Part shown: one piece after another, positions 7,868 through 38,693 of the stretch
Position numbering within the stretch: position 1 is the first letter of the stretch
Layout of the letters: each line of letters starts with the position of its first letter
From: Eledone cirrhosa
Taxonomy: Eukaryota
DNA length: 64,000 nucleotides
Reading direction: 5' to 3'
Assembly (NCBI GenBank): GCA_964016885.1
Contig: OZ024742.1
Coordinates: forward strand, 219,232,001 to 219,296,000
Position numbers and translations under genes: made by a program
Notes under the pieces: model-generated
What the model was told of the DNA's origin: nothing
Databases searched by the model: none
What the model saw: the letters and a program-made list of their open reading frames with translations, nothing else

Positions 7868-8060
7868 ATAGGAACAAGTAAGACCCCGACGGCTGAGCTC
7901 AAGCCGTTTCGACGGCTAATTCTGTACTGAATTAGCCGTCGAAACGGCTTGAGCTCAGCCGTCGGAGTCTTACTTGTTCCTATTACCCACTCTACTACCC
8001 TAAGTATTGAATACTTTGGTGCGTTATGGTCCACCTGGTTCCTTACCACATTTCCTTCGT
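7868..8060 (+). repeat. Fold-back palindrome (7868-7983) of a PLE-type terminal element carrying an HHR 3' half
   Basis: About 55-bp near-perfect inverted arms around TGTACT; the right arm reads CGAAA-CGGCT-tgagctc-AGCCG-TC; related pieces at about 44275-44305 and 61305-61425. Confidence 0.75.
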
Positions 8061-10029
8061 TATATATATATATATTCTTCAAGTGAGAATGTAAAACTTA
8101 CCCATATTCAATACACTGAGATTAATAAAATAAGTACCAGACTGAAATAAATACTGGATTCGATTTTGTTGAGTAAAAGGCTAAAATATTTGTGGGCTGT
8201 GCCCCAGAATGGCCACAGTCGAATAACTGAAACCAGTAAAAGAATATATATATTTACCACAATAATTCTTGATAAAATTGCCCTCAACCTTCTTCAAATT
8301 ATCGCAGTTGGTGTTGTCAAAGCATTTTTCGAACTTGTCCTGCTCTCTGGAGAAAATAAAATAATTGTATTTACGAATTTAAAAAAATGTTTTTTATTAT
8401 TGGTTTGGTGTAGAAGAAGGAGTAACTTTGGATTTCATAGGTCAGTCAAGACACGTAATATCCACACAAATGAAGTTCTTCTTGAGAATTAGAGAGAGCT
8501 AGTGCTCTGTGGTAGGAAAGACCCAATATGGATGGCAAGAATAGAGACGACGGGTGGGCAAGAATGGGGGTACCCAGAGATAAGTCAGCTCTAATAAATA
8601 GATATTACTTAAGTAATAATAGAAAATGCAAAGTGATGAAACAGCACCTCTAGAGTGTTTTGGTGAACAACTCCACGCCACTCAGTTGGGTTGCATTTCT
8701 TTGCATGCAGTCAAGAATAGGAAATCAATGTGCACGAGAATCATGTGATTCAGTTGACTAATAGAAGCTATCATGGAACATATTGTAGAGTATAGAATCC
8801 GCCAATCGGGGATGTCTCTTAAGATTAGCCTTAATCAAACATTGTGTTCAAACATGATATAATTAGGATTACATTATCCAACGTGTCTAATGCAATATTG
8901 TGTGCTTTGAAGGACATTTGGTTGTTATTTCTTGCAAGTCAAGTGATTATGTAAACCATTTGTTACTGTCACATACACTTCCATTGCGAGTAACAAGTCT
9001 TAGTAATAGTAACTAAATTATCACTATAGCAATAGAAGAAACAGAGAGGTTGAGATAGAGACAAAATATGGTAGGGTAGCGATAAAGGAGACACAGCTTA
9101 ACGATAAGCAGTTGGTTGTAAAAGTTTGTGTAAGAGACAGATGGCTGGTTTCATTGAACTTTAATCAAAGTCATGTTTAATAAACTTACTTGCAGAATGA
9201 TCCATGTTCTTTCCTTATCTCTTTGTACGTATCAAGTTTGCATGTTACCATTTTAGCTAAATCACATTGATTATCTGCTAAAATAAAGTTATAATTTCAT
9301 ATTACAATTTAAGCATAAACATAATATTTATCTTAAAATATTTTGCAGTTTTTAGTCACTTTCACTAATCACTTTATTGAAAAATCGATGGTTTTTGGGT
9401 GGTGTGGGTATTCGTGTCTTTCGTTTAGATTGTAGCAAACTAGTTTCCTTTGGCGCATTGATACCCTTTCCGTACGTTGTTTGGCTGAGTTAAGCCAATC
9501 GCTATCAGCGTAAGAATATGTATCTCAACTTCCGCCCAAATGGAAAAATTCATGCTTCTTTTTAATAAACTAATTCTCTTGCAGCTCGACCTTGCTAAGG
9601 TAAACATCATTCCAATATGTAACTACAAAACATTACTGCGGCCTGGCTTCTCACTTCAGCCATGTGTCTTCTCTTATAGATCTTAATTTGTTTGTTCATT
9701 TCTTTTGGCATGCCAACCAACCAAACTTTATACAACTCTTTTTACCTTAAACATTGTTAATAAATTCTGTTACAACGAAATACATGTTGTCGTTAACATT
9801 ATTGTTACATATTCTGGCTATATATTACACGCTGCTAAAAGTAATACTATACTATTAAAATGGTGAATATTACATGCTGCTATACTGATAACATAATACA
9901 TCATCATCTTATGTTATAAACTGCTTCACTGATGACTTCTATTGATACACACTACACAAATATAAATATTAACATTTACATTTATATCTTATTAAATACC
10001 ATCTTCAAGATAAACTGTAAACTATGTTT

Positions 10030-10400
10030 CAAAGTTTCGTAACCTAATTAGTTCTCGGACTAATAATTTAAAATGTAGTCCAGTACTCTAATATGTAATG
10101 TATTATATTATTTATATCAGAGCACCATGGACATCAAAACAATATCTTTGTGAACGTCTACAGCACCCTCAGTGCATCTACAACGCTTCAAATGCATAAC
10201 AGAAGTTCTCTTCTTGGAGGCCGTTCAATACGGCCTGTGATTCCTCATGAATTTCTTCCGTTGTCTCGATACGATGCCTATTTGCAGATCAATTTAATAG
10301 CTTGGCTACTAATCATCCCCAGCTGTCCAGACACGCCAGTTGAACTGTTTAATCATGGCTCGTGCAGTTAAAAAATTTTCTGAAATCACTATGCGGGCGC
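10030..10400 (-). mobile_element. Decayed mariner transposon (transposase C-terminus)
   Basis: Minus-strand translation RHRIETTEEIHEESQAVLNGLQEENFCYAFEAL*MH*GCCRRSQRYCFD resembles the mariner C-terminal segment. Confidence 0.6.
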
Positions 10401-11118
10401 GCGCACACACATGTCCTTTTTGGACTGAGAATTTATAGGTTTCGGATGTTTAAGCTGCAACCACACTATTGAAATCTACGCTTGACTTTCCGAACGGGAA
10501 TTTAACCAGTAAAACAATTACTTGATCAGTTAAAAATTGATTACATTTGATGGAGGTGTGATAAATGTAAAATACTCATCTTTTCCCAGTCGCCGAACTA
10601 TATTATTACCTACTTACCACAAGCTTCTTTCATGGCCTTGAATAAATTAGCATATTTCTTGAATATGCAGTGAGATTTGACAAAGCACATTGCAACATCA
10701 TAGTAGACCCTTAAACAAAGCAGAATATATATATATTATATATACATTTATACACACACACACACATATGGTGTAAAAAAAAATGCAGTTTATTATATAT
10801 TTTCTAATTGAACTTTTATCATAGACATGTAGGTTTTCTAACATTTTATTTTGTTTTGTTTTCCGACTTGTCACCCCATTCTGGAACAGAATTTCTTTCT
10901 CACTCGCTATCTTTCTTTACATATGTATATACATACAATACATACATTATATTACATTACATTACATTACATTACAAGTATTCTGTAAATATCGCCTGTA
11001 AACGGAATATGGATATTTTGAAACTGCTATTAAATTCATCAAATAACATTACTATTTATGTAAAAATTACATTGGTGAAATATAGTTTCTTAGAAACCAG
11101 CCGATTATATATTATATA

Positions 11119-11798
11119 TCTAAACTATAATAAAGTAAGGAGTGCGGGACTGCGTCCAGAATATATTTTGTTATCCCGTTTGTAAAATAAGTTGGATTAC
11201 TTTGAATAAATAATTTTCTACTTTTTGGCACAAGGCCAGCAATTACCCAGTACATTACTGGTACTTTATTTTATCGACCCCGTAAGGATGAAAGGCAAAG
11301 TTAACCTCGGCGGGATTTTAACTCAGAACGTAAAGGGACGTAACTATACTGGAAAGCATGGCGTCCGACTCTCTACCGATACTGCCAATCCATCTGAATA
11401 AATAATGAATGAATATTACATAATTTATCTACTAAATTTCGTTATTCTTGATTAAATATAAATAACTTTGTTGCTTATTTTAAGATTTACTTCTTTAAAA
11501 TTTTCAAATGTCAACACTTCCAGTTAGCGATCGCTTAAATAAACATTTATATATTTCCGTCACTAATTTTCTCCTAATGCAGTTTATATATAATATCGTC
11601 TTTCTTTAATGTATCATGGATTACGTTACTGATTACATAAGACAGTGTAACGCAGTCTTCGTTCAATTTCTGTGTATATTGTCAATTACGATTTTATTTG
11701 ATGTATCATATCTACATGCATATATACTTGCGTATAATATCAATATGCACACTACACATGCTAGTAGAAAACCACTCTAAGGGTGGTTTTTCTGCTAG
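11119..11798 (+). mobile_element. Non-autonomous Helitron carrying an internal SINE (11213-11393, minus strand)
   Basis: 5' TC, 3' hairpin GAAAACCAC...GTGGTTTTTC followed by CTAG, A|T insertion site; second copy at 44434-45223; the SINE is flanked by the TSD TGAATAAATAAT. Confidence 0.75.
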
Positions 11799-12216
11799 TA
11801 TATATAATATATAATCGGCTGGTCTCTAACTGTTTCATCTGATGAACAGGCTGGACGTTTCTGTAAGGATCGTCTAATTTCTTGAAACCTTTCGTAAACG
11901 AATAATTATATTGTGTTCTTTATTATGTAATTAAATATATATATATATATATAATTACATAATAAAGAACACAATATATATATATATATATATATATATA
12001 TGAATGTATATATAGTGTATTTTGCCGGTCAAGCAGAAATTGAAAATTAGAATTGGTGCTCTGTACATTCATATATATATCGCTATTTCAGAGCACCAAA
12101 TTCTAATTTTCAATTTCTGCTTGACCGGCAACCGCTCTGTATAATCAGTTCCTGATTATTACTAGAATTCTAAAAGAATCAAACATTCATGATTTTCAGC
12201 AAACAGGTGGGGTAGT

Positions 12217-37265: not shown

Positions 37266-37310
37266 ATATATATATATATATATATATATATATATATATA
37301 TATATATATA

Positions 37311-37935
37311 TATAAGTATGTATACGTACATACATATATGTATACAGACGTACAGTAGTATGTATATATATATATACATACATGCACACATATATATATA
37401 TATATGTCTGTATACATATATGTATGTACGTATACATACTTATATTTAAGTAACAGCCGTACTAAGAGTGAGAAATGACATTTTGTTTCATATTTTCCGT
37501 TTATCGTTTTCGGTACCCCGGCCGATTAACTCACTCAATATGCAAATTAGGCTGCTCAGCCGTTAATATGCATAAGGAAAGTACATAATTTCAGACGCTC
37601 AATTATCTGACAGGAAGGTATACGTTGCTGACGATAGCTAATAAGCTTGAAACTAGTACAGCGTTCCTTTGTCAGTGTTGAACAAATGAGCAACGATGGT
37701 TGCTAGACACTGTACGGCTTAATTCGGGATGTTTGTTTACAAACACACCGAGCATTATAATAAATGTTCAGTGGATCCATACGTACATATATATATATGT
37801 GTGCATGTATGTATATGTATATACATACTACTGTACGTCTGTATACATATATGTATGTACGCATACATACTTATATTTAAGTAACAGCCGTACTAAGAGT
37901 GAGAAATGAAATTTCGTTTCATTTTTTCCATTTAT
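37311..37935 (+). mobile_element. Non-coding HHR retroelement: inverted 5' segment plus partial tandem with about 431-bp period
   Basis: 37406-37500 repeats at 37837-37931; 37311-37405 is the reverse complement of about 37790-37875; TA-flanked. Confidence 0.8.
37622..37664 (+). ncRNA. Minimal type-I hammerhead ribozyme
   Basis: acgttg-CTGACGA-tagct(aata)agctt-GAAA-ctag-TA-cagcgt. Confidence 0.8.
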
Positions 37936-37991
37936 ATATATATATATATATTTTTTTTCCGTTTATATATATATATATATATATATATATA

Positions 37992-38267
37992 CAGTGTACC
38001 CTCAGCGTTCGTGGAAACCATCACATATTCGCGAAATCGTAAATATCTTCCGCGACTTTTTATGGCTTTTTTCGTGGTAATATATATATTTTTACACCGT
38101 ATATGCCGACCAATAGGCACCCTTTGGCATAAGACGCTCTCCTTTTTTTTAATTATATTTTACGTTATATTTTGACGTTTATTGACAACGTCCAATATTC
38201 GCGGTTTTTCACTCTTCTTCCTGTGAGCTTTAGGAACGTAACACCCGCGAATACCGGGGGACAACTG
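37992..38267. mobile_element. pogo/Tigger-like MITE
   Basis: TA-CAGT...ACTG-TA ends with imperfect TIRs of about 25 bp. Confidence 0.6.
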
Positions 38268-38600
38268 TATATAAGGCAAGGGTAAAGACCTTCTTCGGTT
38301 ACGAATGACCATGGAATTTGCACCTTTCTAGGCACAAGTCCGAGCAAGGTTGTTTGTGGAAGACCAGCAGTCACCTATGCATACCAGCCTTCCCCTCTCC
38401 TCGATGGTGTACAAAGGAAAGGCAATGTCCGACACCAGTGACGTCAACTCATTGTAAGGTTAAACTCAAGTTTAAGTAATGAATTTCGTCTTTCACCCCA
38501 AGCAGGATCATCTGAGATTCAGATAGATAGATATGCTTAGTATTGACGATCACGAGACTACCACATTACTAACTACCACATTCAAGATTAATATATTCTT

Positions 38601-38693
38601 TATTAAGGTCAAGCTTGAGTCTTGTTACTCTGGAGTTTCTTTGAGTACACAGAAGAAACTCCAAAGTAACAGGACTCAAGCTTGACCTTAATA
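38601..38693. repeat. Short fold-back palindrome of an HHR 3' half
   Basis: About 41-bp arms; arm reads GAAA-CTC-ca-GAG-TA. Confidence 0.7.

Follow-up and report, generated by a model that had tools for sequence, protein, structure and literature searches.

Palindromes of short hammerhead-derived repeats in the genome of Eledone cirrhosa as probable products of reverse transcription primed on both target strands

In human LINE-1 twin priming, the second target strand primes internally on the same RNA, which results in an inverted 5' segment next to a direct 3' segment. Large palindromes are also seeded by short inverted repeats beside a DNA break, as in yeast, Tetrahymena and mammalian gene amplification. 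Animal non-LTR retrozymes, as described by Cervera and de la Pena, are reportedly tandem hammerhead repeats. The accessible text of bioRxiv 10.64898/2026.07.22.740005 presents these tandem hammerhead repeats as elements that are held to be non-autonomous Penelope-like relatives, and palindromic or head-to-head forms are not mentioned in that text ('palindrom' occurs 0 times). For Penelope-like insertions, the available sections of Craig et al. 2021 (PMC8557442) describe an inverted, 5'-truncated copy as typical; the tail is often one-ended, (TA)n is a preferred target, and the mechanism behind tandem and inverted ends is called 'still undefined'. Frangieh et al. 2024 (PMC11167929), in the available part, report on a purified Penelope-like protein that cuts both strands of the target and extends each of them; it begins reverse transcription at two internal RNA sites, the interval between which is the 'tail', and hammerhead cleavage is dispensable.

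The window, i.e. the whole stretch of 64,000 nucleotides that was analysed, contains six palindromes in total, each of them an inverted arm adjoining the 5' end of a direct copy. The layout is inverted arm, then direct arm, then a one-sided tail, bounded by TA repeats, and (TA)n flanks are present in all six as well as in nearly all further loci that were printed. Three of the palindromes are referred to as sites 1 to 3. The features of the window are as follows:

7806..7867, no strand: (TA)n tract left of the site 1 element, by direct reading; like the flank in 29 other loci
7868..7925, minus strand: inverted arm of site 1; its outer end is the 'short' end, the reverse complement of ...CTTGTTCCT
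7926..7983, plus strand: direct arm of site 1 with the hammerhead 3' half only, GAATTAGCCGTC-GAAA-CGGCTTGAGCTCAGCCG-TC-GGAGTCTTACTTGTTCCT
7984..8060, plus strand: one-sided tail of site 1, 77 nt, which forms the 'long' end; (TA)n at 8061-8076 comes next
20487..21375, plus strand: palindrome with 1.5 tandem units; arms 20487-20663 and 20666-20842
24315..24636, plus strand: palindrome and tail with a hammerhead 3' half at about 24573-24605; arms 24315-24425 and 24426-24536
28090..28590, plus strand: open frame with a GIY-YIG endonuclease domain (PF01541, E 2.6e-5, 24.9 bits against a cut-off of 22.6)
33666..34343, plus strand: open frame with a weak reverse-transcriptase match (PF00078, RVT_1, E 3.1e-6, 27.5 bits, below the cut-off of 29.6)
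36403..36543, minus strand: inverted arm of site 2; on the outside it borders on (TA)n at an internal AU-rich position, between ...TTTAAAC and GTATGT in the sense copy
36547..36792, plus strand: direct arm of site 2, to 36687, and tail of 105 nt; part of a 621-nt tandem-forming unit without CTGANGA
36845..37270, minus strand: palindrome with a complete hammerhead in each arm; arms 36926-37097 and 37099-37270, one-sided tail 36845-36925
38541..38641, minus strand: longer arm of site 3; past the palindrome it continues into AATAAAGAATATATTAATCT, like its family relatives
38653..38700, plus strand: shorter arm of site 3, ..CACAGAA-GAAAC-TCCAAA-GTA-ACAGGACTCAAGCTTGACCTTAATA
42365..42580, plus strand: non-overlapping inverted pair from the family of 36845..37270; inverted tail piece 42365-42447 and short-end copy 42448-42580

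The architecture of these palindromes is of a known Penelope-like kind. As far as endonuclease-bearing Penelope-like insertions are described in the sections cited above, they share with the repeats of E. cirrhosa the inverted 5' copy abutting the direct copy, the one-sided tail, two discrete 3' end sites, partial tandems (pseudo-LTRs; in E. cirrhosa 1.5 units at 20664-21375 in the window, a period of 467 nt in locus L141, 621 nt in the site 2 family and a spacing of about 531 nt in a family related to L038), the (TA)n target, hammerhead motifs and 5' truncation. However, the repeats described here are non-coding stubs of 75-620 nt without a tied autonomous partner, their tails are longer than published (77-105 nt versus 30-40), and in one family, which is very abundant, the hammerhead survives as its 3' half only. 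We infer the Penelope-like class from the architecture; the GIY-YIG frame at 28090..28590 is a possible remnant of an autonomous Penelope-like element. With animal non-LTR retrozymes, as far as the preprint text describes them, the repeats have in common short non-coding units, a type I hammerhead and the occurrence as monomers, dimers and tandem arrays, but in several families of E. cirrhosa the hammerhead is decayed or reduced to a half.

The pair at 42365-42580 has exactly the layout of human LINE-1 twin priming: reference positions 171-253 are inverted (98.8% identity) and positions 35-167 direct, so without overlap; the inverted part breaks off 4 nt from the short site, which ends at reference position 166. 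In contrast to LINE-1 twin priming, the segments described here usually overlap fully, which makes them palindromes, and priming occurs at AU-rich sites matching the (TA)n target rather than at a poly(A) tail. As in break-seeded palindromes, a short native hairpin could nucleate a long palindrome, and this is what a preliminary description of the DNA studied here had proposed for stem II. However, break-seeded palindromes extend over kilobases to megabases and involve chromosome breaks, whereas most axes in E. cirrhosa lack a native hairpin.

All hammerhead calls rest on our own descriptor, because Rfam gives no hammerhead at sites 1-3: in the 64-kb window no match reached the gathering score, and below that threshold only two HH9 matches were obtained (21027-21098 and 12208-12280), both away from these sites. 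Likewise, covariance models gave no hammerhead match at E ≤ 1 in 16 loci, 11 of which belong to the site 3 family. Curated covariance models appear to miss minimal hammerheads with a 2-bp stem III. Our descriptor yielded six matches in the window versus one in 20 shuffles, and 52 in a random genome sample of 800 kb, with none in shuffles of 400 kb. A type I minimal hammerhead consists of a CUGANGA box, stem II, GAAA, a stem III closed by A15.1-U16.1, a UH cleavage site and a stem I that closes the junction. None of sites 1-3 is itself complete in this sense, since sites 1 and 3 have no box and the site 2 family lacks the box entirely.

The 800 kb contain 59 non-simple palindromes, which were sorted by eye. 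Their axes had been suggested to cluster at hammerheads, and this holds for 24 of them, with the axis inside the motif in 15 (13 from one superfamily) and at most 10 nt 5' of it in nine; it does not hold for six with the axis 47-230 nt upstream and for 29 without a hammerhead. Families other than those of sites 1-3 place the axis at the 5' border of stem I, downstream of the hammerhead or, in further cases, 47-230 nt upstream of the box. The window itself offers examples: in 20487..21375 a complete hammerhead at 21038-21082, with all type I minimal features (HH9, 37.7 bits, below the gathering score), ends about 50 nt upstream of the axis in unit terms, and in 36845..37270 (hammerheads at 37038-36974 on the minus and 37158-37222 on the plus strand, the latter with all type I minimal features) the box begins 67 nt from the first base of the direct copy beside the axis. 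A loose motif of GAAA, stem III and UH starts within 35 nt of the axis in 29 of the 59 palindromes versus 30% of 5000 random positions. This motif by itself is weak evidence, and the weight rests on the evidence at the level of families.

On balance, we consider it probable that each palindrome unites two copies of a short, non-coding, hammerhead-derived retroelement head to head within (TA)n, as a result of priming on both strands. Each of the two cut target strands would start reverse transcription of the element RNA at a site of its own, and the two cDNAs would run off at the same RNA 5' end before they become joined. The enzyme would be a Penelope-like reverse transcriptase with its endonuclease, and candidate frames for both activities lie in the window. 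The long-site cDNA may displace the short-site cDNA, so that both cover the same RNA; one RNA for two overlapping cDNAs would require such strand displacement, and otherwise two RNA molecules would be needed. The two 3' ends might be joined bluntly or via a short self-complementary overlap. On this reading, a hammerhead is found at the axis only because the template RNA of several families starts at or inside the hammerhead, and where the RNA of a family starts elsewhere, the axis would be elsewhere. The DNA is compatible with two origins of the shared 5' end: the RNA may truly start there, or the RNA may be longer and the reverse transcriptase may stop strongly at this point. As head-to-head joining of two DNA copies of one RNA, the palindromes are likely an ordinary Penelope-like footprint.

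Within a family, unpaired copies have their 5' end where the palindromes have their axis, and the short and the long end sites are each also used by unpaired copies. In 1.11 Mb that were not chosen for the site 1 family, we found 17 pairs and 17 unpaired cores, and all 14 scorable pairs have one short and one long end, for which the chance would be 0.5^14 if each arm chose its end freely. By eye, the same rule applies to six of six palindromes in the window and to seven of seven with the axis at the box edge. The short/long rule, the shared 5' terminus and the copies 'caught in the act' favour priming on both strands over self-priming. Self-copying would, however, produce this rule as well, provided that the first AU-rich site is where the returning strand joins the (TA)n flank.

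Self-copying is the core of the preliminary description, according to which the reverse transcriptase stalls in the hammerhead and the nascent cDNA, folded back at the complement of stem II (or stem I), serves as its own template. We regard this as unlikely, although a few copies are indeed centred on a native loop. Several other copies cannot be self-copies of one cDNA, because their short arm holds sequence that is missing from the long arm: the short-end arm of L046 and L047 reaches -17 or -3, while their long arm ends abruptly within stem III, and the loop AGTCCA of L154:1775 and L164:9757 is part of the native sequence of the short-end arm. Nor can self-copying yield the pair at 42365-42580 with its two separate pieces. 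Asymmetric copies of this kind might in theory also have arisen later, by deletions or loop flips at the unstable centres of palindromes. Moreover, loops of zero nucleotides, as in L159 and at 24315-24536 in the window, are impossible within one strand.

The family of site 1 comprises at least 693 candidates. The palindrome of the window carries the GAAA half and lacks CTGANGA, as had been noted before (right arm GAATTAGCCGTC-GAAA-CGGCTTGAGCTCAGCCG-TC, left arm its reverse complement), and unpaired short-end copies have their 3' end where its inverted arm has its outer end. There are six unpaired copies, unrelated in their flanks, that all start 18 nt before GAAA with AGTCCAG (AGTCCAGAA(A/T)TAGCCGTC directly before GAAAC), three of them with short and three with long ends; two of the long ends were read by eye, the script having left both unscored. 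Paired copies extend at most to about this -18 point, with loops of 0-8 nt in 10 of 17. Therefore, the central 'hairpin' at 7911-7940, which had been taken for stem II, is the junction of two such ends. A native stem II is not present, and CTGANGA followed by what would be the 5' strand of stem II (CTGANGA+GACGGCTAAT) had no match when the whole genome was searched. The centre reads CTAATTC-T-GTAC-T-GAATTAG, as would be expected if two run-off cDNA ends (...CTGTACT-3') had annealed via the self-complementary GTAC; two ends rather than one, because a single strand cannot pair GTAC with itself.

Folding back finds examples in the site 3 family. Full-length relatives carry at their extreme 5' end a complete minimal hammerhead with all type I minimal features, AGTCTTGT-CTGATGA-(T)CCTGTG AGTA CACAGG(A)-GAAAC-TCCAGA-GTA-ACAAGACT. 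In the window copy (arms 38601-38641 and 38653-38693, spacer of 11 nt at 38642-38652 with the stem II loop AGTA) the half hammerhead reported to adjoin the axis was found again, with GAAAC-TCCA(A/G)A-GTA present and the box absent. This copy and L098 have one arm from the 5' base of stem II and the other from GAAA and are thus centred exactly on the native loop AGTA, and one copy of L041, from another family, displays the same symmetry. The whole hammerhead of L094 forms the 'loop' and the arms begin at stem I, as a fold-back primed on stem I would yield; the inverted arm of L105 likewise comes from stem I, its direct arm from inside stem II, and the box is missing. However, only two to four of the 14 two-armed copies (partly by manual reading) fit the pattern of stem II base plus GAAA, the junctions of 14 of the 24 copies are scattered across the hammerhead (reference positions 9-55), and the axes of other families are far from stem II.

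At site 2, the arms (36403-36543 and 36547-36687) are 96% complementary with a spacer of 3 nt, and the described palindrome in (TA)n stands, but not its hammerhead half: the G of 'ACTGTA' is private to the right arm in the window, and the left arm and the other family loci printed have ACTTTA or a near variant (ACTATA, CAGTTTA). The 621-nt unit of the family, taken from L050, has no CTGANGA on either strand and no match to our descriptor, strict or relaxed, so that the expected full-length unit with CTGANGA upstream is absent from this family, and folding back within a hammerhead core finds no core here. The centre GTGTTTC-TTT-GAAACAC is, on the other hand, a plausible triloop. The two arms end no more than 3 nt apart, and the family has no common 5' end at this point, as 25 of the 29 other loci continue at least 110 nt further upstream. 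These stops fit self-copying at least as well as priming on both strands. With site 1 lacking stem II, site 2 lacking the core and the junctions of site 3 scattered, the idea that ribozyme structure sets the inversion point is not borne out.

It is also conceivable, but improbable, that one early inversion created a palindromic source whose RNA spans both arms and is copied straight through, differing centres being later deletions, small inversions or slippage at the unstable palindrome tip. The young subfamily of site 1 behaves in this way: 26 of the 29 other loci have the identical centre and the same arm mismatches, and two of these loci show a truncation that proceeds inward from the left arm, as if the whole palindrome had been the template. 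Most copies of this subfamily inherited the palindrome from a palindromic source without rebuilding it, which counts against both-strand priming at each copy. Against inheritance as the general explanation, the centres of the superfamily vary in length and content (loops of 0-36 nt), L031 and L087 go beyond the usual end and mirror sequence of their own there, the unpaired copies that share the 5' end equal the pairs in number, and the site 2 palindrome is unique among 30 loci. In addition, inheritance explains the spread of copies and not the origin of the first inversion. That the repeats are no retroelements at all is hardly credible, be they fold-back DNA transposons or MITEs, some of which have TA target duplications that the TA flanks resemble, or assembly artefacts, palindromes being a known difficulty for assemblers, given that the palindrome occupies one end only and a unique tail the other, so that there are no terminal inverted repeats, that truncation is from one side only, that tandem arrays exist (period 621, 467 or about 531 nt) and that dozens of loci share these structures in spite of their different flanks.

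The genome of E. cirrhosa is very rich in tiny young copies, and their two arms, ends and junctions are legible base by base. Under the reading by both-strand priming, these natural insertions make the in vitro result of Frangieh et al. 2024 (PMC11167929), as given in the available part of that paper, testable. In three families the RNA appears to start at the 5' edge of stem I; in the most abundant family the apparent start is 18 nt before GAAA. We tentatively link three ideas, which together are possible rather than probable: the RNA 5' end might be fixed by the ribozyme region or a bound protein, the inverted pseudo-LTR might arise by twin priming with strand displacement, and the pair at 42365-42580 might represent this process midway. 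If this were true, the ribozyme region, or a protein bound there, would be the signal that fixes the template 5' end in several unrelated Penelope-dependent families, and the pair at 42365-42580, halting 4 nt from the inner start site, would be a twin-priming reaction caught midway.

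Palindromes were found, both by reading and by a palindrome scan, at all three places where the preliminary description had put them. The scan of the window, whose source genome measures 3.0 Gb, returned nine palindromes, six of which are non-trivial:

7868-7983, palindrome at site 1
36403-36687, palindrome at site 2
38601-38693, palindrome at site 3
20487-20842, additional palindrome
24315-24536, additional palindrome
36926-37270, additional palindrome

All six share one layout: a (TA)n tract comes first, then the inverted arm, 0-11 nt of spacer and the direct arm, and a unique tail is present on just one side. 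The tail is followed by (TA)n at five of the six, while site 3 is flanked by merely AT-rich sequence on both sides. In two places, 36793-36843 and 24637-24668, a single (TA)n tract is entered tail to tail from opposite sides by two elements that belong to different families. The same structures turn up at dozens of loci whose flanks differ, which argues against sites 1 and 3 being assembly artefacts. The site 2 palindrome is an unverified one-off in the current assembly; Logan contigs from four runs cover 36200-37500 in pieces of 60-120 nt, and none of those listed spans a palindrome.

Coding remnants lie between palindromic stubs in the same region:

28090-28590, forward strand, open frame with a GIY-YIG domain
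33666-34343, forward strand, weak RVT_1 match in an open frame

Both belong to a run of broken open frames with strongly negative GC skew (about -0.2) at 25580-35741 on the forward strand, which probably represents one or two Penelope-like elements in a decayed state. At 54528-55019 on the forward strand, a SAM/Pointed domain (PF02198, E 4e-9) is encoded in an open frame that may be an exon of a host gene of the ETS type.

Rfam gave no match at gathering score in the whole window and, in E-value mode, only two sub-threshold HH9 matches (21027-21098 and 12208-12280). Its hammerhead models matched none of 16 loci, 11 of which belong to the site 3 family. Since minimal hammerheads escaped Rfam, we used our own descriptor with shuffle controls, which demands stem I (4 bp or more), CTGANGA, stem II (3 bp or more), GAAA, stem III (2 bp or more, A15.1-U16.1 among them) and UH. 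The descriptor matched six times in the window versus once in 20 dinucleotide shuffles, and 52 times in 80 arbitrary 10-kb stretches versus zero times in shuffles of 40 stretches. A looser half-hammerhead motif was dropped as a test because it is too common, being present at 30% of random positions. All hammerheads referred to here are putative motifs, called by the descriptor or by eye. Scaling of the random sample suggests genome-wide hammerhead motifs on the order of 10^5. The 52 matches in these 800 kb (L108-L187) represent fewer distinct motifs, and the majority belong to one family (tattttgt-CTGATGA-aggcatacc..ggtatccct-GAA-atatgtat-A-atgaaata). The forward-strand match at 12208-12280 (HH9, 24.5 bits, below threshold) is a decayed hammerhead in which TTGATAAG replaces CTGATGAG, stem I is long and stem III reads ACAGAGCTCTGT; it is situated within a repeat of ~315 nt with direct repeats at its bounds. 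A 5'-truncated member of a further tiny family (..ATCCGTTAAGGGTGAAAGCAGCGATTCTTTGCTTAAAC..) lies at 7745-7806 on the forward strand. Its core reads CAGAAGA and not CUGANGA, and the (TA)n tract in which it ends is also the host of site 1.

In the 800-kb sample, 59 palindromes passed a complexity filter and were sorted by eye from printed lists according to the position of the axis, the palindrome centre.

Axis positions of the 59 palindromes
Within a hammerhead or half-hammerhead: 15 (13 site 1 relatives; 1 uncertain)
0-10 nt 5' of the CTGANGA box or stem I, whole core kept in both arms: 9 (2 uncertain)
47-230 nt upstream of a complete hammerhead, which is present in both arms: 6
Hammerhead not recognised: 29

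The axes gather at hammerheads far above the genome share of the motif, mostly at its 5' edge. As far as the sequences tell, it is only in the site 1 superfamily, which appears to have no native stem II, that the axis regularly lies at 'stem II'. Among the palindromes in the window, the box begins 67 nt from the axis, counted into the direct copy, at 36926-37270, and the axis at 20487-20842 lies, in coordinates of the unit, ~50 nt downstream of the hammerhead; another copy of the latter family (L141) has its fold-back elsewhere in the unit.

The site 1 element comprises 193 nt (7868-8060), has a passing resemblance to polymerase III A and B boxes, and yielded at least 693 candidates in the genome with a 70-nt query alone. 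Since 26 of 29 other loci have the identical centre, the palindrome seems to be mostly inherited in this young subfamily. The left arm is complete in 26 loci, truncated from the left in two (L016, L029) and rearranged in one (L028). In the wider superfamily the centres vary, and a scan of 1.11 Mb, consisting of random stretches and flanks of loci fetched for other families and thus not selected for this one, contained 17 palindromic pairs and an equal number of unpaired cores. Six unpaired copies, whose flanks are unrelated, start at AGTCCAGAA(A/T)TAGCCGTC|GAAAC, 18 nt before GAAA; three have the short-site end and three the long tail, two of the latter having been read by eye and left unscored by the script. 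Since these copies begin there, the native element would therefore possess only the 3' strand of the would-be 'stem II', and the joining of two ends at this position would create the central hairpin. A genome search for CTGANGAGACGGCTAAT, in which CTGANGA is joined to the would-be 5' strand of stem II, gave no match. CTGANGA N4-34 followed by GAAACGGCTTGAGCTCAGCCGTC gave 17 matches, none of them canonical and, by a rough estimate, about what chance would give for a family numbering a few thousand copies. The 11 matches to CTGANGACGGCTAAT comprise eight from one unrelated family and three unrelated single matches. One locus with an upstream box (L038; G000:C4:376099076-376102136, minus strand) was rejected as a hammerhead-complete ancestor, being a chimera of another hammerhead family (at least 1645 candidates) through ..TACGT and the site 1 family from CGAAAC onward; its junction resembles the product of switching from one element RNA template to another at a CGT microhomology.

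The site 3 family is small and old (37 candidates, 82-94% identity). Related copies show a complete minimal motif, AGTCTTGT-CTGATGA-(T)CCTGTG AGTA CACAGG(A)-GAAAC-TCCAGA-GTA-ACAAGACT, and this hammerhead forms the very 5' terminus of the element, because the flanks upstream of stem I are unrelated between copies. We aligned 24 copies to a natural one (L079, box at position 13). Ten are single-armed, with the alignment starting at positions 10-16 in eight, at 23 in L085, and the tenth being L079 itself. The other 14 are two-armed with every junction within positions 9-55, a range to be read with the bias that the query lay on the motif, so that copies truncated farther downstream were unfindable. 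The arm pair that the stem II fold-back model predicts, one arm from the 5' base of stem II and the other from GAAA, characterises, by reading, only 2-4 of these 14, clearly the window copy and L098; other pairs are box/box (L090), box/GAAA (L086, L095) and stem II/cleavage site (L105).

The family of site 2, whose window copy spans 36403-36792, is large (2640 candidates, 96-98% identity) and builds tandem units of 621 nt; of the 30 loci fetched, the window copy alone forms a palindrome. The family sequence that precedes GAAACAC is GTCTGAT(A/T)TTTGATTTCGGATTCAAA. In one unit (L050), CTGANGA is absent on both strands and even the relaxed descriptor finds no match, and the 'GTA' formerly taken as a hammerhead part does not hold up, its G being private to the right arm. 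Three copies (L051, L058, L062) are 5'-truncated at most 20 nt upstream of GAAAC, too few to claim a hot spot. The proposal of a half-hammerhead at the axis is thus borne out at sites 1 and 3 and as a real genome-wide tendency, whereas it fails at site 2.

Fold-back of the cDNA on stem II of the ribozyme is not the best mechanism, given the apparent lack of a native stem II at site 1 and axes that, where they gather at hammerheads, do so mostly at the 5' edge of the motif. We lean towards priming on both strands as the main route: both cut target strands would prime on the element RNA, and the cDNAs would run off at its 5' end and be joined head to head. In the site 1 superfamily, with 17 pairs in 1.11 Mb, all 14 that could be scored combine one short and one long outer end, the two alternative end sites, of which the long one carries the tail. 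The same was seen by eye in 6/6 palindromes of the window and 7/7 with the axis at the box edge, and unpaired copies use both sites too. Short plus long ends in every scored pair point away from a strand copying itself, although this rule alone would also fit self-copying if joining took place at the first AU-rich site.

Several asymmetric copies could not have copied their own partner arm, which speaks against self-copying, unless the tips of these palindromes were damaged later. The pair at 42365-42580 consists of a short-end copy (reference 35-167) and, joined to it without overlap, an inverted piece of the tail (171-253, 98.8% identity) that halts 4 nt from the short site (end at 166). This is the layout of LINE-1 twin priming, in which an inverted piece is joined to a direct piece. 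In L046 and L047 the long arm breaks within stem III and the short-end arm extends to 17 or 3 nt before GAAA, and the loops at L154:1775 and L164:9757 are native sequence of the short-end arm. The centre of site 1 in the window reads ..TTC-T-GTAC-T-GAA.., which would result from two run-off ends ..CTGTACT-3' annealing via the self-complementary GTAC. Together with the zero-loop palindromes found, it would fit joined ends better than one folded strand. G (or C) homopolymers of 10-20 nt coincide exactly with 5' junctions or palindrome axes in different families (L053 ~1400-1440, minus strand; L166 5561-5718; L092 ~1326; L110 ~3300) and may be untemplated additions by the reverse transcriptase.

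The single event at site 2, where the arms stop at most 3 nt apart and not at the 5' end of the family, suits fold-back at least as well. Moreover, the 5' end shared by copies may be the true end of the RNA or a strong stop, DNA alone being compatible with both. Because of this ambiguity, the site 2 event, possible tip damage and the double fit of the end rule, we keep fold-back as a minority route, which we consider rather improbable. Helitron/Helentron termini and MITEs were rejected, by reading alone, from the ends and the one-sided palindrome.

One study reports that a purified Penelope-like protein cuts both strands of the target and extends each of them. The protein begins at two internal sites of the RNA, the interval between them being the 'tail', and does not need hammerhead cleavage for its reaction (PMC11167929). 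Another describes it as typical of Penelope-like elements to have inverted copies truncated at the 5' end, to carry a tail that is often confined to one end and to target (TA)n, and calls the underlying mechanism undefined (PMC8557442). In the accessible portion of a 2026 preprint on retrozymes of animals, the term palindrome does not occur (bioRxiv 10.64898/2026.07.22.740005). The features of the palindromes described here match those published for Penelope-like elements; the palindromes are the known Penelope-like insertion architecture in miniature.
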